Of a stretch of 64,000 bases of DNA, positions 7,881 to 57,600 are shown in pieces. Position 1 is the first letter of the stretch. Each line of letters starts with the position of its first letter. The position numbers were made by a program, and so were the translations under genes. The DNA comes from a virus (lineage: Duplodnaviria; Caudoviricetes). The notes beneath the pieces are model-generated. The model saw only the letters and a program-made list of their open reading frames with translations, had not been told where the DNA came from and searched no databases. The stretch spans positions 648 through 64,647 of the IMG/VR virus record IMGVR_UViG_3300015245_000006. One strand, 5' to 3'.

Positions 7881-8413
7881 CGGGCGCGCTCCTGCTCGTC
7901 CAGTTTCTCAGCCAACTCGTTGGCGCCCTTCAGGACGTCTTCCAGCGACATGCCGTAGTCGGAGATGATGTCGACGCCGTTGCCCCAGACCAAAAACACG
8001 AAGGACGAGCGCTGGCCTGCCTTGGTGACCCCCAAGGTATCGTTGCTGGTCGACGCCAGCGCCCTGAAGATCGTCGGCGCGTCCTTGGATGCCTTGACGG
8101 TATCCTCTTCGCCATCGTTGACCGTGATGGCGTAGCCAGCGGCCAGGAGGTCATAGACGGCCCGGCCGACGATCCGCTGTTCGGTGTCGGTCGCGTTCGG
8201 GATCAGCGCCAGGTCCAGCTCGCGCAGCACGACGGTGTCCATCAGCGACACAATCGAGGAAAGCCGTTCGAGGACGTTGTTCAGTTGCTTGATAGTGGGG
8301 CGAGCGGTGGAACCGCGATGGGCGTTCTCGCCGAGTTCCTTATGGGCCTCGTCCGCCAGGATGCGGATCAGGCGCAGTGCAGAGAGGGTGGTATCTTGCG
8401 ACCCTATTACCAT
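7877..8413 (-). CDS. hypothetical protein, first gene of leftward operon
   Basis: 178 aa; ...VFLVWGNGVDIISDY. Confidence 0.65.
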   Translation of the reverse strand: MVIGSQDTTLSALRLIRILADEAHKELGENAHRGSTARPTIKQLNNVLERLSSIVSLMDTVVLRELDLALIPNATDTEQRIVGRAVYDLLAAGYAITVNDGEEDTVKASKDAPTIFRALASTSNDTLGVTKAGQRSSFVFLVWGNGVDIISDYGMSLEDVLKGANELAEKLDEQERAR

Positions 8414-15805: not shown

Positions 15806-16053
15806 CCGATCACGCCGCCAAAGTCCGCGCCCTGATGCCCACAAGGCGAGGAAAGGACCATCAGGAGTTCCTCTCCCAGACAATGAGCGTCCTGGGAGAC
15901 GAAATCTATCGGGTCGCCTCGAACGACCTGGCCGAAACCTTTCAAGGTCTGCGGTGCCTGTTCGAAGACGAGATGGCCCGTCTCATTCGCCGCCATGCGC
16001 GTGAGACTGGCGAGACTGGCGAGACGAGCATGCCTGGGGGCCGCCCAAACTGA
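15802..16053 (+). CDS. hypothetical protein
   Basis: GGAGG RBS; C-terminal ETG repeats. Confidence 0.5.
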   Translation: MTDHAAKVRALMPTRRGKDHQEFLSQTMSVLGDEIYRVASNDLAETFQGLRCLFEDEMARLIRRHARETGETGETSMPGGRPN

Positions 16054-16148
16054 GACGGGCGCCTCATCGGCGCGTGAGCGAGACTTGGAAGCGTCCGGCG
16101 ATGCTGGGCTTTTCCGCACCTGAGATGAGACGCTTAACAGTGTGAGAT
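15976..16148. repeat. cluster of GAGAC/TGAGAY motifs with 10-bp inverted repeat
   Basis: GAGAC at 16003, 16012, 16021, 16052, 16080, 16127; TGAGAT at 16121, 16143; GCCCGTCTCA (15976-15985) / TGAGACGGGC (16051-16060). Confidence 0.6.
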
Positions 16149-16158
16149 GGAGGAATAG

Positions 16159-16749
16159 ATGAAGCCTTTTGAGCTGGTCCGCGCCGCTGCGGACGTGATC
16201 CGGACCGGCGGCTGGGCCCATGGGCTCGATGAAGCTGGCATTGGAGTGAATGCGCGGAACCACGCGGGCAAAGAGGTTCCGCTGATGAAGGTCGGCACCG
16301 GTGAGACCGGGCGCGCCAGCTTAAACCCTGAAGCCGTGTCGTTCTCGATCTACGGCGCGCTGGTCAAGGCTGCGGCTGGCAGTGTTGTCGAGGGCGGCGC
16401 GCTGCTGTGGGACACCCTGCACGATATGTCGCAGGCGGCGACCGGTGTCGCCCATGGCGGGCTGAATCACGTCCACCCGGTGATGCAGTACAACGAGACC
16501 GAGGGCCGTACGGTCGAGGACGTGCTCGCCTTCCTCGAGCTCGTGGCTATCGAGCTGGGCGGTGGCCTGGCGCAGACGACGGATAAGCCGCTGGCGCCGT
16601 TGCCGGTCAGCCTGGTCGAGGCCGCCAAGCAGTTCCAGCCCGTGCCGGCTAGAGGCCAGACCGGCTTTCCGGTCGACGGCAATGTACCGCCGATCCAGCC
16701 TTCGGCGACGCCGGAGAGCCGCCTGCCGCCGATCGATTGGAGCAAATAG
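16159..16749 (+). CDS. hypothetical protein
   Basis: GGAGG RBS; AADVIRTGGW...YNETEGRTVEDVLAFL. Confidence 0.7.
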   Translation: MKPFELVRAAADVIRTGGWAHGLDEAGIGVNARNHAGKEVPLMKVGTGETGRASLNPEAVSFSIYGALVKAAAGSVVEGGALLWDTLHDMSQAATGVAHGGLNHVHPVMQYNETEGRTVEDVLAFLELVAIELGGGLAQTTDKPLAPLPVSLVEAAKQFQPVPARGQTGFPVDGNVPPIQPSATPESRLPPIDWSK

Positions 16750-22972: not shown

Positions 22973-23740
22973 ATGAGCTTGACCTGGTTCAAGATCCCGA
23001 TCGCCGAGTTCCTGAAGGAAACGCGGCGCATGAATCTATGGGCGCGGGGCGCCTACATCACCTTGCTTGCCGATTATTACGAAAACGGGCCGCCGACGAG
23101 CAACGACATCGACAACATCACGGGAGATACCGACGTCAGCATGGATGTGTTTGGCGGTCTGTTCGAGCTCCGCGACGGCCGCTGGCACCATGCGCGCGCC
23201 GATCGAGATATCGCCGAGCGCGTCAAGCTCACCCAGCGCTCGGTCGCTAATGGCTCGAAGGGCGGACGCAAGCCGCGCGGACATGCAATTGTTGAGGAGA
23301 CATCCTCGGCGCTGTTTGCTGAAGTCTCTCAGATGATGAAGCAGCCAGAGCCCCAAGCCGGCGACCTGGATGATTACGACGATGACGGTGACGATCTGAC
23401 CAGCGCGCCCAAGGTCCAGACCAGCACAAGCTACATCGGTAAGCCGCCGCCCGCAGCGCCAGCACCGGAGCCGATCGAGGCCGACGAGGAAGCGGAGGAC
23501 AATTTCACGCCGATCCCGAAGGACTTTACGCTTGATGGCGCCGAGGTCAGTAGATGTCTGGCTGCCGGCGCGACATCGACCGAGCTTGCAGCCTGGTTCG
23601 ACGAGTTCAAGAGCGGACACGATGAGCGCGGCACCCTGTCATCCGATTGGTCTGGTGCCTGGCAGGCGCGCTTCCGCGGCAAGATGCAAACCAAGCCTGT
23701 TAAAGGCCGCGCGCGCGTCGAGGTGAGCCGGCGCGCATGA
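22973..23740 (+). CDS. DUF1376 (YdaU-like) replication-initiator-related protein
   Basis: WFKIPIAEFLKETRRM...RGAYITLL...NGSKGG; C-terminal DWSGAWQ. Confidence 0.75.
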   Translation: MSLTWFKIPIAEFLKETRRMNLWARGAYITLLADYYENGPPTSNDIDNITGDTDVSMDVFGGLFELRDGRWHHARADRDIAERVKLTQRSVANGSKGGRKPRGHAIVEETSSALFAEVSQMMKQPEPQAGDLDDYDDDGDDLTSAPKVQTSTSYIGKPPPAAPAPEPIEADEEAEDNFTPIPKDFTLDGAEVSRCLAAGATSTELAAWFDEFKSGHDERGTLSSDWSGAWQARFRGKMQTKPVKGRARVEVSRRA

Positions 23741-24523: not shown

Positions 24524-24920
24524 GAAGGCAAAACGCAACAACATCCGGAAAACGCTCAAGGGCCTTGTGACAGCGGCCAAGCGGGGCGGTCTTGCGGTGA
24601 CGCTTGGCTTGCCGCGCAAGCCAGAGAAGCCGGTCACGCCCGAGGCCGTGCTCCGGCGCGCGATCCAGTACAAGCCGCGCGCCCTTGCGATCATCATGAT
24701 CGGTTTGGACGGCAAGTCGGATCGTATGTGGTGCGCGCGATCAGGCGTTGGTGCGTCACCAATGCTGGAATTGGCCGGCGCTGCCTTTACGCTGACCGAT
24801 GAACTGTCGTGGAACATCAACCGCGACACTCGCGCTCAAATCTTGCCGCGACCTCCCAAGCCGAAGAGAGCGCGGCCAATCAAGAAGAAGCGCACGGCCA
24901 GGCCGAGCCGCCGGAAGTAA
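24516..24920 (+). CDS. basic hypothetical protein
   Basis: GTG start; K/R-rich termini. Confidence 0.6.
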   Translation: MAKKAKRNNIRKTLKGLVTAAKRGGLAVTLGLPRKPEKPVTPEAVLRRAIQYKPRALAIIMIGLDGKSDRMWCARSGVGASPMLELAGAAFTLTDELSWNINRDTRAQILPRPPKPKRARPIKKKRTARPSRRK

Positions 24921-24922
24921 CC

Positions 24923-25546
24923 ATGTCAGTGACAGGGGTAAACGTGAACGAGCAAATGAAGTCGATCAGCGCCGCAAAGCCAAGTCGAGGGTCAGGTCAG
25001 ACCCGCGGCAAGCGGCGCGGCCGGCGAGACGCAGCCAATATCCTGTGGCGCCGCGTCACGGCATCCTACGACGAAGACGTTCGCGCCTTCGCCAAGAACC
25101 CAGCGCTCGCTTCCCCTGTCACCAGGTGGGTTTTGTTCGGCCATCTGACACCAACCCAAGGCATGGCCGGACGCCGCTATGCCGACATCATGCGGAACTT
25201 CAGCCGGTTTCATATGGAAGGACAATCGACCTCGCCGCGCAGCGCCAATCTCGAACCGGTGCGCGGCGTCGAGGATCAGGAGTTGGAGCGGCGGGCCTTC
25301 AACGGCACGCTCGAGGAATACGAGGCCGATGCGCGACACGCGCGCCGGCAATACAATCGTCTGCAAAAGGTGCTCGCCCGCTTCAAGGACAACGTCACGG
25401 GCCGCAACTTCGCCAAGGACTATCTCGACATGCTGTGTTGCGAGGACCGGGAGCCGCCCGCGCAGCACCGCGCCGATATCGCTGGCGTGCTTACCGCGGT
25501 CGCCAAGGAGTTCGGTGTCGGCGAGCGGAAACGGAGGATTCAGTGA
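24923..25546 (+). CDS. hypothetical protein (possible late-transcription regulator)
   Basis: GHLTPTQGMAGRRYA; position at end of middle region; function is inference. Confidence 0.6.
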   Translation: MSVTGVNVNEQMKSISAAKPSRGSGQTRGKRRGRRDAANILWRRVTASYDEDVRAFAKNPALASPVTRWVLFGHLTPTQGMAGRRYADIMRNFSRFHMEGQSTSPRSANLEPVRGVEDQELERRAFNGTLEEYEADARHARRQYNRLQKVLARFKDNVTGRNFAKDYLDMLCCEDREPPAQHRADIAGVLTAVAKEFGVGERKRRIQ

Positions 25547-25737
25547 GCCTGAGAGAAACCGATCCGGTCGCATGGCTTGCGACGTCGACTTTGCTGGCGT
25601 TGCTTGACACTCATCCAGACATCAAGGATGCGGCGACATTCCTGGTAGGAGGTACGGCTACCTGCAAAGTCGAGGTAGTTATTAAGGATCGAAGGATTCT
25701 ACTTTCGATCAACGCAACCGAGGAGAAGTCAAAATGA
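25543..25737 (+). CDS. hypothetical protein
   Basis: GGAGG RBS; GTGA coupling. Confidence 0.55.
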   Translation: MSLRETDPVAWLATSTLLALLDTHPDIKDAATFLVGGTATCKVEVVIKDRRILLSINATEEKSK

Positions 25738-26416: not shown

Positions 26417-26747
26417 ACAACGGCAGTGGCGCTGCTTCCACTGCGACGCGCTGTTCACCAGCGCCAAGACGGCTGCGGTGCACTTCGGAGCCAGCGAGGT
26501 CAGCAAGGCGGCCTGCAAGCTCAAGGATTATGAGGAGCACCTGGTCGTCTACATCCGCGAACTGGAGGCCCGTCTCGACGGCTATATCGCCGAGGACAGC
26601 CACGTCATGCGTGCGATCTACATGATGGAGGCCGATCACCGCCAAGCGCTCATTCGCGCCGAGGAGCAAGGCTATAACAAGGGCGTGCAGGATGCCCGGA
26701 AGGAGATCGCGCTATGCCAGCAGCGTGCGACAACTGCCGCTTCCTGA
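26403..26747 (+). CDS. zinc-finger hypothetical protein
   Basis: WRCFHCDALF...AAVHFG. Confidence 0.7.
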   Translation: MTAPKQRQWRCFHCDALFTSAKTAAVHFGASEVSKAACKLKDYEEHLVVYIRELEARLDGYIAEDSHVMRAIYMMEADHRQALIRAEEQGYNKGVQDARKEIALCQQRATTAAS

Positions 26748-26917
26748 GGGGCCGCAACACGGCAGCCCAGATCCCTGAGGGTTATTGCCATCGGCTGCCG
26801 CCTGCCATGCTGCCGACCGGTTTTGCTACCCACCGGCCGGTTGCGCTCGTCGGCTGGTGCGGCGAGCACCGCTGGTCGCTCGCCGGCATCGTTCGAGCGC
26901 TCTTCCGCTTAACCTGA
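26714..26917 (+). CDS. small Cys-rich protein
   Basis: CDNCRF...GYCHRLPP...WCGEH. Confidence 0.65.
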   Translation: MPAACDNCRFLRGRNTAAQIPEGYCHRLPPAMLPTGFATHRPVALVGWCGEHRWSLAGIVRALFRLT

Positions 26918-26929
26918 AAGGACTTCACC

Positions 26930-27223
26930 ATGTTCACCTGCGAATGCGCCACCGAGCACGAAAGCCCGTTTGACACCGTGATGATCCACGATAAGCACCG
27001 CGCCGAGGCAATCTCCAAGCTCGGGCCGGATGTCGTCATGACCGGCGCCTCGACCAGCTCTCATCCCAAGCACGATCAGGCCGCCGACCCACACAAAGAC
27101 TACACCTATCGCACGACGACCTATTGGCGGCCGTTCAACGCCGAAGAGAAGCTGGCGAAGGCTGAAGTCGAGAAGGCCGCACAAGAGGCTACTTACCTGC
27201 AAGCGAAGCAAGCCGGAACCTAA
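26930..27223 (+). CDS. hypothetical protein
   Basis: AAGGA RBS. Confidence 0.6.
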   Translation: MFTCECATEHESPFDTVMIHDKHRAEAISKLGPDVVMTGASTSSHPKHDQAADPHKDYTYRTTTYWRPFNAEEKLAKAEVEKAAQEATYLQAKQAGT

Positions 27224-27352
27224 AGTGCCACCTGCGACTACCGCGATCGACCCAAAGCAGGCTTACGCCAGGATATTCATCCTTGGCGTGATCTACAACA
27301 TCCCCATCTGCGGGCCCTGTTGCCACTGGCCGCGCCGGTGACGGAGATCCGC

Positions 27353-27580
27353 ATGGCGCAGCCGCCGAGGATCTATTACGGCACCTGCGACGGCGGCCCG
27401 TTCCGCGGCAAACAAATGGCGCATGCGACCTTGACATTGGCGGTCTACTTCGATCCCGACACCAAAAAGGCCGTGGTCGGCATGCAGGCGCCGTCACAGA
27501 ACCAGCCGCACGTCAAGCGCGGATTGTACCGCTTCAACGAGGAGTTTTCGCGCTGGAGCTGGGAGGAGACGAAGGAGTGA
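27353..27580 (+). CDS. hypothetical protein
   Basis: GTCDGGPFRG; GGAG RBS. Confidence 0.6.
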   Translation: MAQPPRIYYGTCDGGPFRGKQMAHATLTLAVYFDPDTKKAVVGMQAPSQNQPHVKRGLYRFNEEFSRWSWEETKE

Positions 27581-28300
27581 GACGGTTTTTGGGGATAACT
27601 GCCGTCTCGCATAATCACTTGCATTGCAAGAGCTATTGCGTGTGTTGGCAGACCGTGAGACGGTCCCAAAAGCCCAAGGGCGAGATTCGTCCGAAGGCGA
27701 CAATTCGGGCGGCGGTAGTGATAAGGTCCCTGCCGATTACAAGGAGGGATCGGGCCTGCCGGAAACGACGGTCTGTCCGCCGCCCGAGTTTCAGTCTTAT
27801 CTGGTTACGACGACGCGGTTCCGACACTCATATCCCGCAGGGCCTCGGCCCACTGCACCAAGGGCAACCAATCGCGTTTCTGGATCGCCTGGGGCGGCGT
27901 ATCGCTCTACCAAATCTCGAGTTTTTGCAGGCCGGTGACAGGCCACGCAAACGCGGCTTATCCCTCGGGACAGCCGCAGGAGCCAACTCCGAAAAGGGTT
28001 GGTTCCACCAATACCAGGCGCGCCAGCGGACAGGCGCGACATGTGAGGGGCCGGCGCGCGACGTCCGGCATCCCGCCGCAGGCTGGAGCCGCTGGCCGGC
28101 CTGCGGAAGATTTCGCTGCGGTGCAGAGGATAAGCACCTTTGGCCTTCGGGTCGGTACAAGCGCAAGCTCAAGGCCAGCGGCGTAAATTCTCGCCCACCG
28201 GCGCTGGATGGGATCTGGCGTTTGGTAGGAAAGAGGCTGCGCGCCAAGGGAAACGGGACGTAGATGGGGCGGATCGGTGCCCGTCCGATCGCGGTCACCA
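27577..28300 (+). ncRNA. candidate large structured non-coding RNA
   Basis: Longest gene-free stretch; >12 helices with G-U pairs, UUCG/GNRA loops and multibranch junctions; ends helix-ACCA. Confidence 0.6.
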
Positions 28301-28316
28301 GCATTTCGGAGGCATC

Positions 28317-28583
28317 ATGACCGACAACGTGGTCTCAATCATCAGTGGCCGCGAGGTCATCCCGCCGGGCACGCCGCGGCCGGACCTGATCGCCGAGCTG
28401 GAGCGCCTCTTGGAAATGGCGCGCTCCGGAGAGCTTGACGGCATCGCCTATGCCTCGCTCTACCGAACCGACGCAACCGACTGGAACGTATTCGGCCGCT
28501 GGACGCGGTCGACCGTCGGCGCGCTACATTGCGCGATCTACAGGCTTTGTTCAACTGACGTCGATGGAGGCGTGAATGGCTAA
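28317..28583 (+). CDS. hypothetical protein
   Basis: GGAGG RBS; LERLLEMARSGELDGIA. Confidence 0.7.
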   Translation: MTDNVVSIISGREVIPPGTPRPDLIAELERLLEMARSGELDGIAYASLYRTDATDWNVFGRWTRSTVGALHCAIYRLCSTDVDGGVNG

Positions 28584-28746
28584 AAAGATCAAGCACGTTG
28601 GCTTCAAAGGCGCCGAGAAAGCCGTCGAGAGCGAGGGCTATAGCGCCAAGAGCGCGGCCAAGATCATCGGCGCCGGCAAGGCGCATGCCTCGGCGGCGGC
28701 AAAACGTGCCAACCCGCGGCTCAACAAGAAAGGCGGTCGCTCGTGA
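28576..28746 (+). CDS. small basic Ala/Lys-rich protein (56 aa)
   Basis: Read manually: MAKKIKHVGFKGAEKAVESEGYSAKSAAKIIGAG...ANPRLNKK; GGAGG RBS. Confidence 0.7.
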   Translation: MAKKIKHVGFKGAEKAVESEGYSAKSAAKIIGAGKAHASAAAKRANPRLNKKGGRS

Positions 28747-29057
28747 TCGTTCCAAGCATCGGCCGCAAAGTCTGGTACCGCCCCTCCCACAACGACAAGC
28801 AGTTGGGCATGCAAGCCTACGATGATAAGCCGTTCGATGCCGATGTCTGTTATGTGTGGTCTGACACCGAGGTCAACCTTGTCGTGACGGATCACCATGG
28901 CGCCCAATATCGGCGTACGCGTGTGCCAATCAACGTTCCTGACGTTCTGCCGCGCGCTGACTGGATGCCGTTTCAACTCGGACAGGCCAAGAAGACTGAG
29001 GCGGACACTCTCGAAGAGGTCCGCCGGCTGGCGTCGGCCGGAAAGCCGCTGATCTGA
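28743..29057 (+). CDS. conserved phage protein
   Basis: PSIGRKVWY...VNLVVTD...WMPFQ. Confidence 0.75.
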   Translation: MIVPSIGRKVWYRPSHNDKQLGMQAYDDKPFDADVCYVWSDTEVNLVVTDHHGAQYRRTRVPINVPDVLPRADWMPFQLGQAKKTEADTLEEVRRLASAGKPLI

Positions 29058-29239
29058 TGCCATGGCTCCCGAGCGATGGCCCGAAGCGCCACACCAAGAA
29101 GGCCAACACTCCAGCCAAGCGCAAGCAATGGAGCTCCACCGCAAACTCGGTGCTCGAAGAGAGTGGGGACGAGGCGAAGGCAGTCCGCATCGCCAACGCG
29201 GCCGTCAAGAAACATCCCTCCAAGAAGAAGGCAAAATAG
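29057..29239 (+). CDS. ChaB-like small basic protein
   Basis: QWSSTANSVLEESGDEAKAVRIANAAVKK. Confidence 0.7.
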   Translation: MPWLPSDGPKRHTKKANTPAKRKQWSSTANSVLEESGDEAKAVRIANAAVKKHPSKKKAK

Positions 29240-29241
29240 CC

Positions 29242-29511
29242 ATGTCCTGGTCCCTTACCGCGATCGGCAAGCCAGCTCCGGTGCTTGCCGTCCTGAAAGC
29301 TGACGTTGCGCGCAACACCTGCTCCGAACCCGAGCAATCGATCCGCGCGGCTGTAATGGATGCGATCGAGCTCGCCTTGAACGCGATGCCGGAAGGCTAC
29401 GCGGTCCAGGTCAATGCCGGCGGCAGTCAGCATCGACCGGATTCGACCAAGCCCGGCATTGTCAACTCGCTCAAGGTCGAAATCGTCCCGATCTATGGCT
29501 TCGCCGAGTAA
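29242..29511 (+). CDS. hypothetical protein
   Basis: MSWSLTAIGK... Confidence 0.65.
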   Translation: MSWSLTAIGKPAPVLAVLKADVARNTCSEPEQSIRAAVMDAIELALNAMPEGYAVQVNAGGSQHRPDSTKPGIVNSLKVEIVPIYGFAE

Positions 29512-30127
29512 CATTCAGGACGCTATCCGCCGGATCGCCGAGGCCAACGGCGAGGACCCAGCGACCTTGCTCGCCTATGCCGAGCGCGAGAGCGCGTTCA
29601 ATCCGCAGGCGCGATCGAGCAAGACCATCAAGGGCTTGTTCCAGATGACCCGCGGTCTGCGCCAGCAGTACGGCATCGGCGAATCGGACGATCCGGAAAC
29701 CCAGGCCACCGGCTACATGCCCTTCATGCGCGACACCCGCGAGGAGATGGGCCGCATCCTTGGGCGCCGGCCGAGCGACGCCGAGGTCTATCTCGGTCAC
29801 CATTACGGGGCCTCGCGCGCCGCGCGTACGCTCGGCATGGATCCGGATATGCCGGTCGATCAGGTCTTCAGCGCCACGGAGCGCGCCGGTAACCCGCACT
29901 TCGATCGCGCCGGCACCATCGGCAATCTCAATTCCTCGATCATGAGCGACATCGAGAAGAGGCGGAGCAGATTCGGCGGCGAGGGGCTTGACTTCTCCTC
30001 TGCGGTCGGGGCGCCAGCGCCGGAGCCGCTGGATTTCGGATCGAAGGCGGTCGCCGACCATGTAATTCCATTGCAATCGCAAGGTTCGAGCGGCCCGCTG
30101 GACTTCTCCTCGGTGGCGCAGCAGTGA
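29495..30127 (+). CDS. SLT/lysozyme-like transglycosylase
   Basis: RESAFNPQA..SKTIKGLFQM...VYLGHHYG; start uncertain. Confidence 0.8.
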   Translation: MASPSNIQDAIRRIAEANGEDPATLLAYAERESAFNPQARSSKTIKGLFQMTRGLRQQYGIGESDDPETQATGYMPFMRDTREEMGRILGRRPSDAEVYLGHHYGASRAARTLGMDPDMPVDQVFSATERAGNPHFDRAGTIGNLNSSIMSDIEKRRSRFGGEGLDFSSAVGAPAPEPLDFGSKAVADHVIPLQSQGSSGPLDFSSVAQQ

Positions 30128-30876
30128 CGCAGCCACCCTTCGAGGATGACTGCCCTGACGGCGGCGGCCAGCGCCCGACCAAAGAACAGGCCGAAAAGGT
30201 CCGTGACTATCTGATCAGCCGCAAGCGCCCTGCGACGGTCAAGGCCGTGTTCGAGGAACTGTCGGCGCGCAACTATGTGGTATCGAAGGCAACCGTTGGC
30301 CGACTGATCCCGTTCAAGCCGCGCCCGCCACTCTCACCGGTCCGCAAGGCCGAACACCGCGTTACGAGTCGACGAGCGCGGAATAGAGTTGCCAGCAGTG
30401 AGGCAGCCAAACAGCCACCGCTGAAGGCGCCTGCGCCGCCGCCTGAAGTGTCGTCAGAGCCGGCCAAGGCTGCGCAGACGATTAGTGCCGCGCTCGCCAA
30501 GGTCGACCCGCGGTTTTCGCTCGAAGCCTTGACAAAGGCGGATGCCACCTCGACGGCGCTGGCGATCCTTGAGAACCGCGAGCGCATGGCGCTCAACATC
30601 ATCATCATGCGAACGATGGCGATGTACCCGGAGCGGATGATCGTCGACATGCGCTGCACCGCCGCCTTGGTCGATGCGCTCACGATGGCCGCGAAGCTTT
30701 CCGGGGGCGCCTCGATCGACATCACGGTCCCGACCAGTGACAATCGCCCGCATGGTTTGAATGGGGCCCATGGCAATGGCGAGATGAAGGACGTGACGCC
30801 GACGGTTATCAACCCGCTGGCGGAAGACTTCGCGAAGTGGCGCAACCTGCGCAAGACCAATGGTCAAGGAGCTTAG
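30124..30876 (+). CDS. putative terminase small subunit
   Basis: N-terminal HTH-like region; directly upstream of and overlapping terL; positional call. Confidence 0.55.
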   Translation: MTQPPFEDDCPDGGGQRPTKEQAEKVRDYLISRKRPATVKAVFEELSARNYVVSKATVGRLIPFKPRPPLSPVRKAEHRVTSRRARNRVASSEAAKQPPLKAPAPPPEVSSEPAKAAQTISAALAKVDPRFSLEALTKADATSTALAILENRERMALNIIIMRTMAMYPERMIVDMRCTAALVDALTMAAKLSGGASIDITVPTSDNRPHGLNGAHGNGEMKDVTPTVINPLAEDFAKWRNLRKTNGQGA

Positions 30877-32635
30877 AGGGACACGTTACCTCAAAGACCC
30901 GCGCCTTGGTGAGTTCATCACCACGAAGCTGCCGTTCCTCGATCTGGACGAGACGACGGATTTCTACGAGTTCATCGAGGAGACCGGTTCGGCGGCCGAC
31001 AAGGCGCTGCTCAACTGCAACGACCGCTTCTACCTGCTGACGGTTACATGCGGTCGGCGCGACATGCTGGTGCCGTGGATATTCGATCGCTGCCGCGAGG
31101 TCGAGGCCAACCCGGATGGTTACCTCGATCTGTGGGCGCGCTACCACTACAAGAGTACGATCTGCACGTTCGGCGGCTGCATCCAGGAAATCCTGGTCGA
31201 CCCCGAAATCACGATCGCCATCATCTCCGGTACCGACAAGGTCGCGCAGCCATTCCTGATCCAGATCCAAGAGGAGTTCGAACGCAATGACCTTTTGAAG
31301 ACCCAGCACTCGGACGTGCTGTGGGACGATCCACGGCACCAGGCGCCGCAGTGGTCGCGCTATAAGGGAATTGTCGTCAAGCGTCGGGGCAACCCGAAGG
31401 AGTCCACCGTCGAGGCATTTGGCCTGATCGACGGCATGCGGACCGGCAAGCACTATCAGATCTTAAACTTTGACGATCTGATCAACGAGACGATGGTCGA
31501 TAACCCCGACATCGTGAAGAAGGTAACGCTGCGCTGGGAACTGTCGGACAATCTCGGCGTGCTTGGGCTTACCCGCAAGTGGCACCAGGGCACGCGATAC
31601 TCATTCGCGGACACCTATGGCATCATCATCGACCGCGGTATCCTGAAGACGAGGATTTTCCCGGCCACCATCGACGGCACGCTGACAGGCAAGCCGGTGC
31701 TGTTGACCGAGGAGAAATGGAAAGACGTCAAGAAGGCGCAGCGCTCGACCGTCAATGCGCAGATGCTCCTCAACCCGATCGCGGGCAATGAGAGCACGTT
31801 CTCGATGCTGTCGTTGGCGCATTACGACATCGTGCCGACTGTGCTCAACGTCTACATCATGGTCGATCCGTCGAAGGGCAAGACCAAGCGCAGCGACCGC
31901 ACCGCCATCTCCGTGATCGGCATCGACGTCGGCGGCAACAAGTATCTGCTCGATGGCTACTGCCACCGCATGAAGTTGTCGCGGCGCTACGACCTGATCT
32001 GCCAGCTCCGCGAGAAATGGTCGAACCATCCTGGCGTGCAGCATGTTCGGGTCGGCTATGAGCAATACGGCATGCAGGTCGACCTGGAGGTGATCCAGGA
32101 ATACCAGGAGCGCGACAACGATCAGTTCCCGATCGAGGAATTGAACACCACGCAGGACGGCAAGCACTCCAAGAGCGACCGCATCTCGCGGCTTCAGCCG
32201 GATTTCAACCGCGGCATCTTCTATCTGCCGGCCGTGGTCTATCACGCAGACTTCGGCGGCGGCCTCGCCAACCAGGCTCTCTGGGACGTTTGGACCGAAG
32301 AAGATTCCAAGCGGATGATCGAGGCGGCCAACGGCGCCCACAACGAGGCGGTTGGCACCATCGTCTACCGGCCGATGCAGGACCTCACGCGCAACCAACG
32401 CGCCTGCAAAGCAACCATGCAGTCATTCCGGATCGTCACCGCGCTGAAGCGGCTCAACGAGGACGGCGACATGTACGACCTGACGCGGGCGTTCCTCGAA
32501 GAGTTCCGGCTGCATCCGTTCGCGGCACATGACGACTTCCTGGACGCGACCAGCCGCGTCTACGACATGAAACCAACCAAGCCGGTCCCGTTCGAGGCGA
32601 TGAACGCCGAGCCGCGCATTTATAAGGATTCATAG
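30860..32635 (+). CDS. terL: terminase large subunit
   Basis: ARYHYKST Walker A variant, TGKHYQILNFDD Walker B, QGTRY, VDPS...SDRTA, HDDFLDA. Confidence 0.9.
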   Translation: MVKELRGTRYLKDPRLGEFITTKLPFLDLDETTDFYEFIEETGSAADKALLNCNDRFYLLTVTCGRRDMLVPWIFDRCREVEANPDGYLDLWARYHYKSTICTFGGCIQEILVDPEITIAIISGTDKVAQPFLIQIQEEFERNDLLKTQHSDVLWDDPRHQAPQWSRYKGIVVKRRGNPKESTVEAFGLIDGMRTGKHYQILNFDDLINETMVDNPDIVKKVTLRWELSDNLGVLGLTRKWHQGTRYSFADTYGIIIDRGILKTRIFPATIDGTLTGKPVLLTEEKWKDVKKAQRSTVNAQMLLNPIAGNESTFSMLSLAHYDIVPTVLNVYIMVDPSKGKTKRSDRTAISVIGIDVGGNKYLLDGYCHRMKLSRRYDLICQLREKWSNHPGVQHVRVGYEQYGMQVDLEVIQEYQERDNDQFPIEELNTTQDGKHSKSDRISRLQPDFNRGIFYLPAVVYHADFGGGLANQALWDVWTEEDSKRMIEAANGAHNEAVGTIVYRPMQDLTRNQRACKATMQSFRIVTALKRLNEDGDMYDLTRAFLEEFRLHPFAAHDDFLDATSRVYDMKPTKPVPFEAMNAEPRIYKDS

Positions 32636-34737: not shown

Positions 34738-37278
34738 ATGCTGCGTGCCACGCCGCCTGGTGAAGACGGAGTTCTGAAATCGGGCCCTACGCCGTCTGAC
34801 AATATCATTGGGCGCGCCTCGCGCGCAGTCGCGCTTGCGGAAGAAGGTCACGGCGAAGCCGGGATGCCGTTTGCGGAAGACGAGGTCCCGTTCGACGAGG
34901 TCCCGACCGACGACGAGTTCCTGCAGATGGTCTACGAGGCCGATGCGCAGTCGCTCCAATACATCAATCAGGTCAATCGCGATCAGTGGGAGCGCGGCTA
35001 CCGCGCCTACCATCAGGAGCACTTCTCCGAATCGAAGTATCGCACGCGCGATTACCAGAACCGCTCCAAACTGTTCGTGCCGAAGACCCGCACCTCGGTG
35101 CGCAAGGACATGGCAGCGACCGCTGCCTCTCTGTTCGGCTCGATTGATGCCGTCAACTGCATGGCCGGCAACGAGGGCGATCCGCGTCAGCGGGGCTCTG
35201 CCGCCGTCATCAAGGAGCTGGTGAACTACCGGACCGATCGCGCCACCGGCAAAGCCTCGATCCCGTGGTTTCATGTAGCGCTCGGCGCGCGCCAGACCTC
35301 GCTCATCACCGGGATCTGCCTGTCCAAGCAGAGCTGGAAGCTCGAACTTCGACGAAGCGGCACCGAGAAGTTCCGTGATGACGACGAGGACCCTGACGAA
35401 GAGGAGAAAGAGCGCGACGTCTGGGAGCCCGATGTCGATCGGCCGGAATCGGAACTGATCCCGCCCGAGAACTTCGTGATTGATCCGGCGGCCGACTGGC
35501 GCAACCCGGCGCAGGACGCGGCCTATACGATCCTGAAGTACCCGATGCGGCTCGACGAGATCAGGCGCAGGCAGCGCGACCCACGCAACCCGTGGAAGTA
35601 CATCGACGAGAACACGCTGAAGTCGTCCGGCGAGGGCGCCCAGCAGCAGATGGAGGCGATCCGCAGGGCCCGCGAGCAAGGCCTCGACCGCTTCGACAAC
35701 ACGCAGACCACACGGCATTTCGACGTGATCTGGGTCTGGGAGACCTTTATGCGGGTGGCCGGCGAAGATTGGACCTTCGTCTCGATCGGCAACAAGCATA
35801 TGCTGACAGACCCGCGTCCGGTCCGCGAAGTCTATCCCGAGCAATTCGGTGAAAGGCCCCTCGTGCTCGGCTACGGCTCGCTCGAAGCATTCCGCATCTT
35901 CCCGATGTCGAATGTCGAAAGCTGGCAGATGCTTCAGCAGGAAGCCAACGACATTCGCAACTTATCGCTGGACGCGCTCAAGCAGAACATCATGCCGGTG
36001 ACGAAGGTGGTGCGCGGGCGAAATGTCGACCTGGACCAGCTCAAGCGCCGCGGCCAGGGCTCCTCGATCCTGGTGACCGACAAGGATGACGTCACCTGGG
36101 AACAGACGCCGACGTTTCCGCAAGCCGTCGTCACGATGACGGAGAAACTCGATATCGAGTTCGATGACCTCGCCGGCCAGCAGAATTACGGCACGGTCCA
36201 GAACAACAACAACCTCGGCAAGACGCTCGGCGGATTGAAGCTCGCGGCGGGCGCGGCCAATGCGGTGCAGGAATACGATATCCGGATCTGGATCGAGACC
36301 TGGTGCGAGCCGGTGCTGACGCAAATCGTGCGGCTCGAACAGTTCTACGAGTCGGACCCGGTCATCCTCGGCATTTGCGGCGAGCGCGCCAAGCTGTTCG
36401 AAAAGCACGGCATCAACAAGATCGATGACGAGCTCTTGGAGAACAACGTCACGGTTCGCGTCAACGTCGGACTTGGCGCTGGAGATCCCGAGCAGCGCCT
36501 CGCGAAGTTCAACAGCGCCACCCAGATCGCGCTGCCGCTGCTCGAACTGTCTCCGGAGTTCAAGACCGGCAAGAAGGTTATGGACTACGAAGCCGTCATG
36601 GAAGAGGTGTATGGCGCCGCCGGATATCGCGATGGCGGGCGCCGCTTCGTCAAGGACGGCCAACAGTCCGGCCCGAGCCCGGAACAGGATGCTACAGTCG
36701 ACAAGCTGAAGTCGGACGCGGAAAAGAATCGCTCGATGGGCAAGGCCGCAATCGTCAACGCGCTCTCCAACGCGGCGAAGGTCGGTATCGCCATCAGCAT
36801 GGAAGAGCGTCAGAAAATCCTCGATCTGTTCGACATGCACTACCGGCACGTCGACCAGATGGGCAGCGCGCTCGACCTCGGCCACAGCCACGGGCACGCA
36901 ATCGCCGACAGACAGAATGCCGCGAAGGGCCTCAACCCCGACGGCACTCCGATGCTTCCGCCGCCCGGTCAATCTCCTGCCGGCGGCGGGGCTGAGGGCG
37001 GGGGACCACCCGGCGACTCCACTGGAGTTGTGGCCGGTGGGGGCGCAGGTCCTCCGCCCGAGAATCCAGGCGCCGGCAATGCCGGCGTGGCGCCGCAAGA
37101 CCTCGGCAAACATGGCGTTCCGGCTGGAGATGCCGGCCAGCAGATCATGCAGGACCAAGCTGCCACGCAAGCCGGGCTTGAGAAGGGCCTGAAGAAGCCG
37201 GCGCGCAAGCGCACGGTCGCGATCACCAAGCGTGGCGCCGATGGTCGGGCCGCGGCTTTTGAAGTCACCGAGCACTAA
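34738..37278 (+). CDS. portal protein (P22/T7-like podovirus type)
   Basis: RSKLFVPKT, IPPENFVIDP, long helical core, Pro/Gly-rich tail; position after terL. Confidence 0.85.
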   Translation: MLRATPPGEDGVLKSGPTPSDNIIGRASRAVALAEEGHGEAGMPFAEDEVPFDEVPTDDEFLQMVYEADAQSLQYINQVNRDQWERGYRAYHQEHFSESKYRTRDYQNRSKLFVPKTRTSVRKDMAATAASLFGSIDAVNCMAGNEGDPRQRGSAAVIKELVNYRTDRATGKASIPWFHVALGARQTSLITGICLSKQSWKLELRRSGTEKFRDDDEDPDEEEKERDVWEPDVDRPESELIPPENFVIDPAADWRNPAQDAAYTILKYPMRLDEIRRRQRDPRNPWKYIDENTLKSSGEGAQQQMEAIRRAREQGLDRFDNTQTTRHFDVIWVWETFMRVAGEDWTFVSIGNKHMLTDPRPVREVYPEQFGERPLVLGYGSLEAFRIFPMSNVESWQMLQQEANDIRNLSLDALKQNIMPVTKVVRGRNVDLDQLKRRGQGSSILVTDKDDVTWEQTPTFPQAVVTMTEKLDIEFDDLAGQQNYGTVQNNNNLGKTLGGLKLAAGAANAVQEYDIRIWIETWCEPVLTQIVRLEQFYESDPVILGICGERAKLFEKHGINKIDDELLENNVTVRVNVGLGAGDPEQRLAKFNSATQIALPLLELSPEFKTGKKVMDYEAVMEEVYGAAGYRDGGRRFVKDGQQSGPSPEQDATVDKLKSDAEKNRSMGKAAIVNALSNAAKVGIAISMEERQKILDLFDMHYRHVDQMGSALDLGHSHGHAIADRQNAAKGLNPDGTPMLPPPGQSPAGGGAEGGGPPGDSTGVVAGGGAGPPPENPGAGNAGVAPQDLGKHGVPAGDAGQQIMQDQAATQAGLEKGLKKPARKRTVAITKRGADGRAAAFEVTEH

Positions 37279-51637: not shown

Positions 51638-54600
51638 GTGGCATTTAGCGATGCCATGATCGGCAGCAACGATTTCGATCCCCAGGCCGCGACCGAGGAT
51701 CTGATCCGCCGCCTATCGGACGAGCCATTGCCGGACACGCTCGATCCGAAAATGCTCAATACCCGGCTGGCGCGCAAGCTCGGCGCCGAGCCGCCGAAAG
51801 AAGTCAAGGCCCCGAAAGCACCGGAGCTTGACTTTTCGGCGCAAGCCATTCCGGCCAGCAATACCGAGCCTGGCAATGTGCTCGATTTCACCTCTCAGGT
51901 ACAACCAACTCCGGTAGCCGCAGCCGCGCCCGGAACGTCGGTTACGGATAAGCTTCAGAGCGTCCACGAGAATATTGATCCCGCGACGGCCGCCAAGGGC
52001 TTCGCGAAGGGTGCCATGCAGGGCACCGGCGGCGTGATGAAGGGCGCCGCGCGCCTTCAGAGCCAGGCGCAACCTTACCTCAATTCCCTCGAGTACGACC
52101 CCATGGGCAACGTCATCGGCCAAAAGCCGGTGCAGCCACCCACTCCAATCGAACAGAACCCGGTTTACCGGGCCGGCAAAGCCGTGGAAGGAGCCGCGCC
52201 AGGCATGACGCCGGCCGAGGAAAGCTCCCTGACCGGCCAAGTCGGCACTATGGCGGGCGGAATTGCGCCTTATGCCGCGGCCACCCTTGTCGGTGGTCCC
52301 GCGCTCGGCATCGCCGCGGGCTTCACCGGCATGGCGGCCGATACCTATGGCAAGGTCTACGAAGAGGCGATCGACAAAGGCGCCGACGAAGCGACCGCAC
52401 AGAAGGCCGCAAGCCGTTCCGCCTTGGTCGCCGGCGCATTGGGTTCGTTGCCGCTCGGAGCGGGTAAGCTCGCCAAAGGGTTGATCGCCAAGGCCGGGAC
52501 CAGCGCGGCAGCATTCGCCGGCCTCGGCGAGGCACAGCATTGGGCGCTGGAGGAAATCGCCAAGAGCTACGATCCGGAACGCGGCTATTCGCTCGAAGCC
52601 AAGCGGCTGATCGCCGAGCTGATCCTCGGCGCCGGCATGGGCGGCCTGCACTATGCCCAGACCGACCACGTCAACATCAACACGTCGAGCGGACCAACGC
52701 CGACGGCAGGATTGCCGCCTCCGGCCGGAGGTAGCCCGCAAGGCGGTGCTGGATATGGTCCGGGAGGACGGCCGAATCCTGGCGCTGGCGCGTGGCCTGG
52801 AGACACAGGTTCATGGTCTCAACCGCCTCCTGGCGGTGGACCGCAGCCGGGACCGGGACCTCAGCCTGGTCCGCAATCGAATGCTGGCGCCGCTGGGGGC
52901 GCGCATCAGCAGCAGGGACCCCAGCCGCCGCCCGGCGGACCTGGCGGCACCCAAAGTGGCCCACGGCCCAATGCAGGCGGTGGCGGCCCGGGATCGCAGC
53001 AGCAGGCCAAACCGCCGCCTGGCGCTGGCGCCGGCAAGGGCCCTGAGTTCACCATGGACGCCCGCATGCGCGCGAAGATGGAGAAGGTGTTCCGGATGTA
53101 CGAGCCGGGCGCCGACGTCTCCGGCATGTCGGATTCCGACCTATTCAACGCCGTCAACGAGCACCTGCGCGACACCTCCAAGACCGGCTACACGGCGAAG
53201 CCGGAGACAGAGCAGGAAGCAGCGGCGCGCGAGGCGACCGCCAAGCGGCGCGATGAGGACGAGATCCTGCGCAAGGCCGGCTGGACCGACGCGCATATCA
53301 ACGCGATGAGCGAGGAGCAGCGCGCGTCCTACATGGCGCGCGCGCAAGGCGCCAAGCCCGAAGCTGCTCAATCGCGGAAAGATCGGACAGATCGGAAAGA
53401 TTCGGAACAGGCGGCCGAGCCAAAAGTCGAAGAGCCAGTGGCCGCGGCCAGTGGTGAAAATCAAAATGCCCCAAAAAACGAGCAGTTAGATATTCACCAG
53501 GGCACGCGCGAGGCGCCGATCGTCCCGAAGACCGCCGACGAGGTGGTCAAGGCACAGGCCGCGGAGCCAACACCAGCCCAGGCCAGCGCCGAGAACTACC
53601 AGCACGCACATGTCGAGCTCCCGCAGTTCGGGCTGACGGGCGACCGCTCGGTGTCGATCGAGACCGGTGTTGGTCAGACCCGCAAGGGCATCGGCGAAGA
53701 TGGGAAGCCCTGGGAAGTCCAGATGCAGGGCGGCGCGTACGGCCGGATCAAGGGCACGAAGGCGGCCGATTTCAAGCACGACGCGGACGGCAACCAGATC
53801 CTTGACAAAGATGGCAATCCGGTCCGTCAGAACCTCGATATCAAGATCGGACCCAATCCGACGAGTCCGTACATCTTCATCGTCGACCAGCACGACCCGA
53901 AGACCGGCAAGTTCGACGAGCACAAGATCCTGGCCGGTTACCGCACGCCGCTCGATGCGCTGCACGGGCATGCGCTCGATTATGGGGATCACGCGGAGGG
54001 CCGAATCGGTCACGTCACCGCGATGGGACCGGAAGAGTTCAAGGCTTGGCTGAAGACGGACACGACAAAGCCGTTGAAGCCGGAGACCGCGCCGCCGACC
54101 TCGATGCGACCTGAAGCCGTCGAGGCCGGCGCGCGTACTCCTCTGACTGAGGCTCCGGGTGAAGGCGCCAATTCCGAAGTCCCGAAGGTCGAACCCAAGG
54201 GCACGGCCAAACCGAAAACAACTACTACGGGTTTAGGTTCCGAGCAGCCGCTCTCGTTGCTGCAATTTATCGCTTCGAAAGGCGGCATTAAGGCACATCC
54301 CGAGTTGGCGGCGATTGGTCTCACCGGTGTCCACAGGATTGTGGTACCGGGCCGGAAGGGCTTTGCAGCCACGGTTTCACCAAAGGGCATGCATCTCGAC
54401 AAGATGCGTGAGGCCGCGCAGGAAGCCGGATACCTGCACGGCGAAGGCGAAAAGACATCGACAATCCGTGACTTGCTGGACGCAATTGATACCGAGCTTC
54501 GGGGCCAGAAGAAGCATGCGGCTGGCGAGGAAGGCACCAAAACTAAGGCTGAAGCCACCCTGGCGGCCGAGCGCGAGGCGCACGAGCAGGAGCGCCATGA

Positions 54601-57600
54601 AGCCAATTACGGCGAATCGGAGCGCTCCGTCGAAATCGAATATCCGGAAAGCCCGCTGGAGGTGCGCGCCGCGGCTGGGCGCCTGATGGTGGACGAGGGC
54701 ATGGACGTGCACGACGCGGTCGAGCGTGCCTCGGTGCAGCTTGCCAACGAGGATGAGCACTACCGCGAGACACCAGACCAAATCATTGATACATTCGGGC
54801 CCGAGGCAGACCATGTTATTCACCGCGCAACAGCACATGAAGATGGCGAAGAGACTGCACGCGCGGTCGAAGCAGGAGCGCGACCCGGTGGCGGCGAAGA
54901 AGCAGAAGGGCTTGGCGCACACGTTCCGGAGACTGGCGCAGCAGGCGGCGAAGAAGCAACCGCCGAAGTAAAACCCACCGTCGAGAAAGGCGCCGACAAC
55001 AAGCCGCAGCTTGTTATATCTGGCGCCGAGAAGATCGGCCAGGGCGCGCAGGCCAAGCGCGCGGCTGCCGCAGCGCTCAAGCCAAAAGTCACACAAAAGG
55101 CCATGGACGTTGGCCTGTTCGGCGACGAGAAGGACCAGGCTGACCTCCTCGACACCATCCGCGCATCGGAGCGCAAGATCGAGAAGGCGCTCGGCAAGGA
55201 TGCCGACAAAGTGGCGCCGGTCGATATCGCTCGCGCCGCCGAAATCATGGCCGAGCACGAAGGCATGGAGCCGGCCACGGCCTTCGGCCAGGCTGTGATC
55301 GAGAATGCGGTCGATCATGACTTCATCACGCCGCAGCAAGCCGAGGAAGCCTATGGCGAAAAAGTCAAAAACATATTGGACGCCGGACGGCAAGGGGCAT
55401 CTGGCGGCGGGACACCTGTTGAGCAAGAACGCGCCGCACCTGGGGAAGAGCGCACCGGTAGTGCAGCGGAAAATGGCGAGCTTCCGGGCGGCGGCGAAGC
55501 TGGCGAAGCAGGCGAGTCCGAACCTGCCCGTGCCGAAGGTGCAGGCCTACCCGAGCCTGCCGGGCCTGAAGCCACCGAGCCAGGAGCCACCGGCGGGGCT
55601 GAAGCCGCTGGGGACGAAGCCGGCAACGCCGCTGAACAAGAGCCTGCCGCCAGCCCTACCGACTACGCCGGCCTGACACCGCTCGATCGCTATAAGGCGG
55701 TCGCAAAGCGCATCGTCGCGGGCGATATCGGCGCCGACGAATTGAAATCGGAGTTCGCGCGCGTCCTGCATAGCGGCGATTACATCAAGGCCGAATTGAA
55801 CAGCCGCACGATCAAGCAACTGGCGCCGCGTGGCGCTGGCAGCATGAGCAAGAAGGAGATTGTCGACAGGATCTACTCGAACATGCTCCAGCGCTTCAAC
55901 GTGCATGGAAGCGTGACGTGGCAGCCGATGGGCCAGGAAACCTTTGAGGGCGCGCTCGCCAATCGAATTGAGAACACCACCGACGCCGATATCCAAGAGG
56001 CGACCGCCAAGCGCCAGGCCGAAAAGGCTGAATGGGAACAGACTTACGGCGATCCGCAGAGCCTCTATCAGTTCGAAGCCTTCATCCGCGCCAAGGGATT
56101 CGGCAAGCTCACGCCGGAGCAGCGCGTTCGCTACGATGAACTGAGGGCCGAAGAGAATCGCCGCGAGCTCGAGAAGGCAAAGGCCGAGCGCAAGAGCGAT
56201 GTCCGCAAGGTCGATACCGAAGTCGGGATGGAACTCGTTGAGACCAAGCACACGCAGAAAGGCCACGACCTGTTCGTGGTCAAGATGGCCGATCGCGTTG
56301 AGGCTGAAACTTACAAGGAACTGAATAGCGCGGCGAAGCGCCTGGGCGGCTACTGGTCGAGCTATACCAAAGGTGGAGCGGTCCCGGGCTTCCAGTTCAA
56401 GACCAAGGATGCCGCCGAGAAGTTTATGGCGGTACGCTACGGCGACGTCAGCCGCAAGGATCTCGTCCAGCACAAGGAAGAGAAGCGGCTTGAAGGCGCG
56501 GTGGACAATCTGCGCGACCAAGCCGAGCGCATGACGGTCGCGGCTGATGAGAAGCTCGGCGCCGATCGGCTGGTGAACACCGCGCGACGGGCCAACATAG
56601 CGGCCGGCGCTGAGGCGAAAGCGAATGCCGATAAGGCGCTCGCGACCAGCATGCGCAACATCGCCGATGCAATCGAGGCTGGCGAGGCGACACATCTGGG
56701 CTGGTTGCGTACGCGCGCCGATGTCGAGATGCTGGATCGGATCACACGCGGTACCAGACGCGATTGGGTCGAGGCGCAAAAGCCGGCAGACTACGGCGAG
56801 CGGCAAAAGCTGGAAGAGAAGCCCATCAGCCAGGAGATGATCGACGCGGCGCATTACCCATATCCCTACGCGCACCGCGAGGAAGTTGTTAAGCTGGCGC
56901 AGGCGGTATCAAAAACTCCCGGTGCCAAGATGGCCGCAGCGCGCCTGATGAAGGAAGCGCGACTTGCCGAGTCGAAGAAGCAATGGCGCGTCGAAGCCAC
57001 ACACCTTGGCACCTTGGACGATTTCAAGACGGTCGGAGAAGCCGCAGCGAAACTTCCAGGCGCCAAGTATGGCGCAAACACCATGCTGGAGTCGTTCAAC
57101 GATTTTAACCGGCTGCGGCGCCTTGGCATCAACGATCTGCCCTCACTGCGCGCGGCCCTGCGTGAGTTCCTGAAATTCCGCGGGAGTGCCGCGAAGGCCG
57201 ATCCGATCAAGGCTGCGGAGCGCGCTCTGGTCGGGCGCAAGATCCCCGGATATTTCCCCACCCCGGATGCTCTGGTCGATCGGATGATTGAGGCGGCCGA
57301 TATCCAACCAGGCATGAGCGTGCTGGAGCCGTCGGCCGGCAAGGGCAACATTGCGGACAAACTCGCGCTCGCGGCTGATCCGGGCGCTTTGTCCGTGATC
57401 GAACCTGTGCCTGATCTGCGCTCGATCCTGAAGGCCAAGGGCCACGACATCGTCGATAGCGATTTCCTGGATCACAAGGAGCGCGGCTTCACCTATGGCG
57501 ACGTCTACCGCGCGCCAGACGGCACGCTTGGTGTCATGCACGGAAGCAACGGCATCGGCGGCAATCGTGTTGGGTTCGAGAGGCTGGACGCCAATGGCGA

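Follow-up and report, generated by a model that had tools for sequence, protein, structure and literature searches.

What does a phage keep in a 737-nucleotide (nt) gap between its replication-type genes and its late genes? We examined this question in what we call the window, the whole stretch of DNA that was analysed, which covers 64,000 bases of the virus record IMGVR_UViG_3300015245_000006 in IMG/VR (64,647 bases, with a terminal overlap) and has a G+C content of 62%. The gap lies at 27581-28316 and reaches from the stop of gene 27320-27580 to the ATG at 28317. An earlier note, made from the letters of this DNA, had proposed that a single, highly structured non-coding RNA of 650-720 nt is encoded here. 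On balance we favour the reading that the gap holds a promoter and then a modular non-coding leader which would head the late transcription unit, in a slot that related phages use for stable RNAs. Judged by its sequence, the locus is a real, non-coding, structured RNA locus on the + strand, which is modular, new to Rfam and resembles the RNAs of transfer RNA (tRNA) islands. A single ornate RNA of 650-720 nt was not established, as the 5′ ~90 nt are better read as promoter, the cargo is mosaic and two sub-domains are missing in a near relative.

The gap is non-coding

The gap is a non-coding stretch. In 9 of 10 reference genes the GC content at codon positions 1, 2 and 3 was approximately 0.6, 0.45 and 0.8. 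All seven open reading frames (ORFs) which span the gap were flat in this respect, including ORF228 (0.61/0.58/0.66), and the phase spread of GC was only 0.06-0.12 over most of 27650-28249. When ORF228 was searched against 5.8 billion proteins, the one match among 1159 candidates was ORF228 itself. No Pfam match was found for ORF228 or for a minus-strand ORF of 158 amino acids (aa), and no PHROG match was found for ORF228. The one block which aligned with another phage in its nucleotides (27803-27899, with L006) is also interrupted by three 1-nt indels. There is thus no credible gene between the stop of 27320-27580 and the ATG at 28317, in agreement with the earlier note, which had seen a long gap here and had taken the spanning ORFs to be non-coding.

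A probable promoter and a leader motif shared with related phages

Relatives were gathered through the terminase gene (20 viral loci, the best 80 of 456 metagenome loci and 34 genome loci) and further ones were taken from motif scans of viral contigs and from whole records. A close copy of the window's gap was absent from the 20 viral, best 80 of 456 metagenome and 34 genome loci. The motif scans of viral contigs gave 3 matches, all in known lineages, in one case, none in another and a single match (L006) in a third; two larger sets of matches contained one new true homologue (L147) among 55, the rest being chance, and no new homologue among 47.

In L004, L007, L009 and L011 the homologue of gene 27320-27580 is followed by 700-1100 nt without recognised genes and then by the late genes, and it is this position which we call the slot. 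The promoter layout and the leader motif GATTCGYC stand directly after the homologue of gene 27320-27580. In the window, GTGAGACGGT is repeated directly (27577-27586 and 27655-27664), and CCGTCTC, an inverted copy, lies at approximately 27601-27607. A -35 element (TTGCGT, 27636-27641), a 17-nt spacer, a TG (27656-27657) and a -10 element (GACGGT, 27659-27664) can be recognised, and the -10 region falls within the GTGAGACGGT repeat. The layout in the relatives is TTG(C/A)nn, N17 and nAnnGT preceded by TG, with GGnGnnGATTCGYC approximately 20 nt further on; it was aligned in the window, L004, L006, L007, L009 and L036 and was also found in L011, L168, L213/L223 and L002, so that it recurs in about ten related lineages. 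Positions 27575-27608 were identical in a relative from run X3 in which the following 409 nt are replaced. The segment 27577-27664 is probably a sigma-70-type promoter combined with GAGAC operator-like DNA, from which transcription would start near 27671. The earlier note had included 27577-27670 in its RNA; the conserved layout and the GAGAC repeats mean that this part is better read as promoter DNA.

At least four GAGAC/GTCTC sites per 200 nt were found at only two places in the 64 kilobases (kb), 15851-16200 and 27501-27750. The first of these clusters contains tandem GGCGAGACT units at approximately 16003-16030, just before the gene starting at 16159, and lies ahead of another rightward gene block. 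Both clusters have the look of operators through which a single phage regulator would act on two promoter regions. For a phage group without a cultured member, the locus thus provides a probable late promoter together with the GAGAC repeats as its operator motif.

The leader motif contains, at 27684-27688 and also in relatives, the letters GATTC, which form a GANTC site. Such sites are methylated by the alphaproteobacterial enzyme CcrM, and this one could link promoter activity to methylation.

Contents of the slot in related phages

Between modules in the slot, a tRNA-Met gene was identified by ARAGORN in L004, L007, L009, L016 and L147, and L004 also has a tRNA-Thr gene. The slot is closed by a terminator hairpin with the conserved loop CGGAUGUAC and a U-rich tail in L004, L006, L007, L009 and L011. 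L147/L168 have a near-identical terminator hairpin, with the loop GGAUGUAU and then a run of U (seen by eye), which leaves only approximately 25 nt before the first late-gene start. At the other extreme, the slot of L036 consists of promoter, leader and a terminator-like hairpin with almost nothing in between. In L002/G001, the closest phage with 80% identity in the terminase, protein-coding inserts precede the promoter and leader, and some 300 nt of folded but unrelated sequence follow them. As promoter, leader and terminator recur while the contents of L036 and L002/G001 differ, the framework of the slot is conserved and its cargo is variable.

RNAalifold over the whole slot of L007, L168 and L009 predicted 178 pairs, 30 of which were changed on both sides, the tRNA included. 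The Rfam matches in the slots of the relatives were to tRNAs only, with none to GOLLD or ROOL. Rfam likewise gave no match in the window at the gathering score, nor at E values of up to 10 over 27300-28600, and the earlier note's statement that the RNA could be assigned to no family therefore stands.

Two further observations were made in these slots. L004, L007, L009, L016, L064 and L147 have another conserved module, consisting of CGCUnGCCGAGAACGGCnUGGUUGCGGGG and then a long hairpin, between H1/HL (described below) or the tRNA and the terminator; several of its changes are compensatory, it matches no Rfam family and it is absent from the window. The 3′ part of the slot of L007 (approximately 8000-8300) contains an ORF which by eye resembles an HNH endonuclease (CxxC ... 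HxxxH).

Two modules kept through compensatory changes

In the window's slot, two folded modules are shared with related lineages and show compensatory changes (Table 1). The first is a three-way junction made of a closing stem (27702-27715/27777-27790), a hairpin at 27725-27731/27745-27751 and a hairpin at 27752-27774 with a GAAA loop at 27762-27765. Its closing stem, compared between the window, L007, L168 and L009, has 12 pairs, 5 of them with changes on both sides, and 95.8% of its 48 cells were paired, against 31-46% in six slid controls. None of 500 shuffles reached the stem in cells paired, cells changed on both sides or covariation score, and 8 and 11 of 500 did so for the two count measures. 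Only the closing stem was counted because the MAFFT alignment shifted the hairpins inside the junction by one column; the inner hairpin 27725-27731/27745-27751 shows a G-C to C-G swap relative to L007 by eye, which was left uncounted.

The second module is a pair of hairpins, H1 and HL (28018-28106), which is common to the window, L004, L007 and L147/L168. It has 15 pairs, 7 of them changed on both sides; 96.7% of 60 cells were paired, against 30-43% in six slid controls, and none of 500 shuffles was as high on four of five measures (11 of 500 on the fifth). The stem of HL differs in each of the four lineages, and all six of its pairs are changed on both sides. H1 hardly varies, its one double change (C-G to A-U) being in L168, and contains GCCAGCGG at 28022-28029. 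The element CCGCUGGC of HL (28090-28097) is exactly complementary to this GCCAGCGG and to a second copy of GCCAGCGG at 28174-28181, and the GCCAGCGG and CCGCUGGC elements of H1 and HL are invariant in the four lineages, so that a loop-loop contact between H1 and HL, or an alternative pairing, is possible. Contig 11 of run X3 (32 kb) keeps the promoter and H1/HL, and all 13 of its substitutions within 28018-28103 fall in 28048-28073.

On this comparative evidence, the junction at 27702-27790 and H1/HL at 28018-28106 are homologous, covarying modules under selection for RNA structure, the covariation numbers being a matter of consistency and not of statistical proof. Covariation had been named in the earlier note as a check on the structure, and it bears out two domains which are kept through compensatory changes, with comparative support limited to approximately 27 base pairs.

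A covariance model (R1) built from the four-lineage alignment, the window included, gave the window's own copy 101.7 bits, a match by construction. The H1/HL module was not found by cmsearch in L006, L009, L011, L016, L036, L213 or L223 and was seen in four lineages only. R1 was also run on five bacterial genomes, where the best match (E 0.008) was without H1 and was judged to be due to chance.

The other parts of the leader have fewer comparators. For the block shared with L006, which aligns with three 1-nt indels at 27803-27899, RNAalifold on the pair of sequences gave 22 pairs, of which 2 were changed on both sides, and a 27-nt fragment of it is present in contig 12 of run X3. A degenerate tRNA at 27800-27870 was considered and rejected, being unsupported by ARAGORN and Rfam. 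Contig 12 (250 nt) is a close match to 28004-28116 and to 28222-28303, with 3 differences in the latter. In it a 27905-like end is joined directly to 28004, nine letters replace 28117-28221 and give a small hairpin with a 4-nt loop, and a tRNA-like start lies beyond 28303. As contig 12 is without them, the hairpins of 27906-28003 and the domain 28117-28221 are dispensable in a near relative.

The helices listed in the earlier note do exist, with 93% complementarity over 14 nt for 27702-27715/27777-27790 and 91% over 11 nt for 28076-28086/28096-28106, and its GAAA, cUUCGg and GCAA hairpins are present in the minimum-free-energy (MFE) fold. Its helix 27813-27820/27866-27877 fared less well, as it is not kept in L006, the one comparable relative, for which RNAalifold prefers approximately 27815-27827 with 27877-27889.

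Table 1 Features assigned to the gap and its 5′ border, with positions in the window.
Feature	Positions	Strand	Basis
Putative promoter and operator DNA	27577-27664	+	Repeats; layout aligned across relatives
Leader motif GATTCGTCC, with GGnGnn before it	27684-27692	+	Invariant or nearly so in alignments
Three-way junction	27702-27790	+	MFE and centroid folds; inverted repeat; covariation of closing stem
Block conserved in L006, including hairpin GGGC-CUCG-GCCC	27803-27899	+	76% over 99 nt, three 1-nt indels
Three-hairpin insert between the similar decamers TCTACCAAAT and TCCACCAATA	27906-28003	+	MFE fold; absent from contig 12
Linker CCAATACC, then hairpin H1 (stem 28018-28024/28033-28039, loop AGCGGACA)	28008-28039	+	Kept in L004, L007, L168
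Variable hairpin between H1 and HL	28048-28074	+	Length differs greatly among four lineages
Hairpin HL	28076-28106	+	Stem 28076-28082/28100-28106 around invariant CUGGAGCCGCUGGCYGG
Domain with cUUCGg and GCAA hairpins and, at 28203-28219, a hairpin weakly resembling a terminator	28117-28221	+	MFE fold
3′ part of leader: hairpin 28269-28277/28285-28292, GGAGG 28308-28312 before ATG 28317	28222-28316	+	Sequence read

Folding energy

The whole gap folded better than its shuffled versions, with z-scores of -3.78 on the + strand (20 shuffles) and -1.79 on the - strand, and of -3.0 with 60 shuffles, where the best shuffle reached -330.4 and the native sequence -330.7. For six pieces of 246 nt (100 shuffles each) the z-scores were -3.11, -1.38, +0.26, -2.12, -3.06 and -0.71 on the + strand and -1.70, +0.08, -0.28, -0.97, -1.71 and -0.33 on the - strand. 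The + strand thus folded better in five of the six, in keeping with the earlier note, which had favoured it.

As a background, 45 windows of the genome (50 shuffles each) had a mean z-score of -0.66 with a standard deviation of 1.35; nine were at or below -2, one was at or below -3 and the minimum was -3.55. Against this background two of the six pieces lie at its edge and four are ordinary. A background scan with 15 shuffles was noisy (outlier -7.27) and was not used; the background window of lowest energy had a z-score of -1.52 with 200 shuffles. Comparison with shuffles, a further check put forward in the earlier note, therefore gave a mixed answer: the gap is better than shuffles (z -3.0 to -3.8), but modestly so, with only two of six sub-windows at or below -3, which is unexceptional for this genome.

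Interpretation of the locus

We propose the following reading. In the related Hyphomicrobiales-type phages the slot consists of a probable promoter, the conserved leader motif, a variable cargo (tRNA-Met, sometimes tRNA-Thr, and folded RNA modules) and a conserved terminator hairpin ahead of the first late gene. The window holds a version of it without a tRNA or a clear terminator, with a leader of approximately 550-645 nt that would run from about 27671 to somewhere in 28225-28316 and a cargo that is a mosaic of independently folding modules. Host RNA polymerase would transcribe the slot strongly at the onset of late transcription. The modules would then be cut out, or would persist, as stable structured RNAs acting in trans, like the adjacent tRNAs, and the loops of H1 and HL, with their invariant 8-nt complementarity, would contact each other in the same molecule or in different ones. 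That modules and tRNAs interchange in the same slot, together with the covariation, suggests that the modules are expressed and act in trans as RNAs which are probably stable. The natural swap between tRNAs, modules and nearly nothing in one slot is an argument for counting the modules, like tRNAs, as cargo which is expressed.

Several points weigh against this reading. ARAGORN found no tRNA or transfer-messenger RNA (tmRNA) gene in the 64 kb of the window, and there was no Rfam match to a tRNA at E values of up to 10. The CGGAUGUAC terminator hairpin was not found in the window and no consensus terminator was found on the + strand of 26500-29500, so that two features typical of the slot are missing. 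The closest phage, L002/G001, has none of the window's modules, and its unrelated cargo could mean that the slot contains neutral filler and not functional cargo. The covariation rests on four related sequences per module, with structures derived from these same sequences and so favoured over the slid controls. The H1/HL complementarity is beyond the reach of covariation because it is invariant. About 400 nt of the window's leader have one comparator or none, and the folding energy is ordinary for the genome in four of the six sub-windows. Finally, we infer the transcription, the ends of the RNA, its processing and any trans function from sequence.

If the reading is right, the locus would add an RNA family from uncultivated soil phages of Alphaproteobacteria, and the tRNA, module and near-empty versions of one slot would be ready-made comparisons for what such RNAs do.

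Alternative explanations

It is unlikely that approximately 27671-28300 forms a single architecture, one large ornate RNA of the GOLLD/ROOL type which is perhaps multimeric through complementary loops and has its variable parts at the periphery. The layout in the relatives, with a 5′ domain, tRNA-Met, a 3′ domain and a terminator, does recall GOLLD and ROOL, which a preprint places near tRNA islands (10.1101/2024.12.08.627333), and the 8-nt complementarity between loops is invariant. The near relative swaps sub-domains for short hairpins, as occurs in peripheral stems of real RNAs, and in the relatives RNAalifold pairs the 5′ leader with the segment before the terminator (columns 12-17 with 702-707). 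However, no Rfam match to GOLLD, ROOL or any other family was found even at E values of up to 10, the content of modules is mosaic among lineages, with H1/HL in four of them only, and the closest phage is without any module of the window. The long-range pairs are putative, some of them being invariant, and the z-score is modest. We also regard as improbable the broader proposal that the window and its relatives represent a new tRNA-island-associated phage RNA family comparable to GOLLD and ROOL, in which an RNA of 300-700 nt, reaching from promoter to terminator and made up of exchangeable domains, would assemble, by intermolecular kissing of its GCCAGCGG and CCGCUGGC loops, into a higher-order particle late in infection, with tRNAs as optional passengers.

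The gap could instead be a cis-acting regulatory leader which controls read-through from the late promoter to the late genes, and to this we assign a low probability. The control would be put-like processive antitermination, for which lambda PR′-tR′ and HK022 put offer a comparison, or attenuation through alternative H1/HL pairings. Its location between the promoter and the late genes is invariant, and in the relatives a strong terminator, whose loop and trailing sequence are conserved, lies directly before the first late gene with no space for another promoter. Alternative pairings also exist, the H1 hairpin competing with 28015-28029/28089-28103 and the 3′ strand of the junction with 27889-27899. 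Against this, the window has no recognisable terminator to regulate, and L036 and L002 retain promoter, leader and terminator without the modules, which are thus unneeded for the promoter-terminator framework. In addition, tRNAs in the same slot point to a trans-acting cargo, and in L007 and L168 the H1/HL module is more than 100 nt from the terminator.

Less likely still is a DNA-level element (a packaging site, a replication origin or a recombination hot spot) with incidental hairpins, or the functionless, decaying remains of a tRNA cluster. In favour are the position of the gap, about 2.5 kb upstream of the terminase gene, the fast turnover of the cargo, with morons or an HNH-like ORF in some relatives, the loss of the tRNA in the window and the unexceptional energy z-scores. 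However, the stems covary around invariant loops, which implies selection on a folded single strand, and G-U pairs make the + strand consistently more stable. The orientation is also that of the promoter and of the tRNAs and terminators of the relatives, and no iterons or AT-rich tract were found.

A hidden small protein gene, for example the 18-codon ORF 28264-28320 or a counterpart of a 50-codon ORF in L006, is very improbable, for although the former, from its ATG at 28264, overlaps the next gene by ATGA (with its stop on ATG 28317) and the slot of L006 contains AAGGAGG and then ATG, the codon-position GC signal is absent across 27650-28249, indels break the frame of the block shared with L006, which in the window also offers no start codon, and the 18-codon ORF is lost in contig 12 of run X3, which is divergent from 28303. 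The ORF in L006 (204-356) lies inside the slot with AAGGAGG as its ribosome-binding site and overlaps the block shared with the window, where the indels break its frame.

Neighbouring genes and probable host

Replication-type genes lie upstream of the gap, including a primosomal-protein-like gene at 22973-23740. Downstream are genes for a transglycosylase (29414-30127), the large terminase (30860-32635, 591 codons), a portal protein (34738-37278), virion proteins and a 3283-aa protein. The description of the locus as a middle/late junction in the earlier note is therefore reasonable, with replication-type genes on one side and transglycosylase, terminase and portal on the other.

No close named phage was found: the gap had no blastn match among 50,697 phage records, and tblastn of the terminase gave only weak matches to annotated terminases. 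Relatives of the terminase with 50-55% identity sit in assemblies of Hyphomicrobium, Bradyrhizobium and Xanthobacteraceae, and for this reason the host is probably a member of the Hyphomicrobiales.

Three other features of these genomes were noted. The 3283-aa ORF (51638-61489) has strong PHROG matches (E 7e-211) to phage proteins of very large size which carry the annotation DNA methyltransferase, and also has regions resembling virion proteins. A 312-codon ORF at 24799-25737 departs from the other genes in its GC content by codon position (0.69/0.62/0.50), and the true gene there may be in another frame or on the opposite strand. In L014 (2698-3003 and 3928-5472) and L223 (5001-7577) the terminase gene is broken or is approximately 800-900 nt longer than the 591 codons of the window, which suggests the insertion of an intein, an intron or a homing endonuclease.

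Comparison with known systems

To our knowledge, only a few families of structured RNAs adjacent to tRNAs are known in phages. GOLLD and ROOL, which are encoded by phages and prophages, rank with the largest RNAs whose function is unknown. According to a preprint, phages often have both of them close to tRNA islands, the linker that joins the 5′ and 3′ domains of GOLLD sometimes contains tRNAs, and kissing loops hold the GOLLD and ROOL cages together (bioRxiv 10.1101/2024.12.08.627333). Like them, our locus is phage-encoded, occupies a slot that in relatives contains tRNA-Met, is several hundred nt long, has many hairpins and possibly has conserved loops that kiss. Unlike them, it matches no covariance model, is smaller, has two conserved modules only, is mosaic among close phages and has no tRNA in the window. 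Since the covariance models do not match, the likeness is limited to context and layout.

In phage T4 the tRNA cluster is co-transcribed with stable RNAs of unknown function (species 1 and 2, rnaC/rnaD). The modules of our slot are likewise non-coding structured RNAs which would share a transcription unit with phage tRNAs. The T4 cluster also has a gene for a homing endonuclease, segB, inside it, as stated in one report (PMC2330249), and the slot of L007 has its HNH-like ORF, recognised by eye. In contrast to the T4 RNAs, those proposed here belong to an unrelated phage group and host and have no sequence relation to them, and the slot heads a late operon and can be free of tRNAs.

The late leader of phage lambda runs from PR′ to tR′ and gives the "6S" transcript, and phage HK022 has put RNAs. 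A promoter, a short non-coding transcript and a terminator just before the late genes are also the arrangement in L147/L168, L006 and L011. The differences from lambda and HK022 are that no Q-like or put-like element was identified, that the window has no terminator and that the modules are absent from relatives which keep the framework.

A catalogue of candidate structured RNAs from IMG/VR contains motifs of 29-151 nt (PMC10690425). It draws on the same data source as our window and likewise describes short covarying motifs, tRNA-like elements and terminators in the intergenic regions of phages, and the H1/HL module or the terminator hairpin may already be in its lists.

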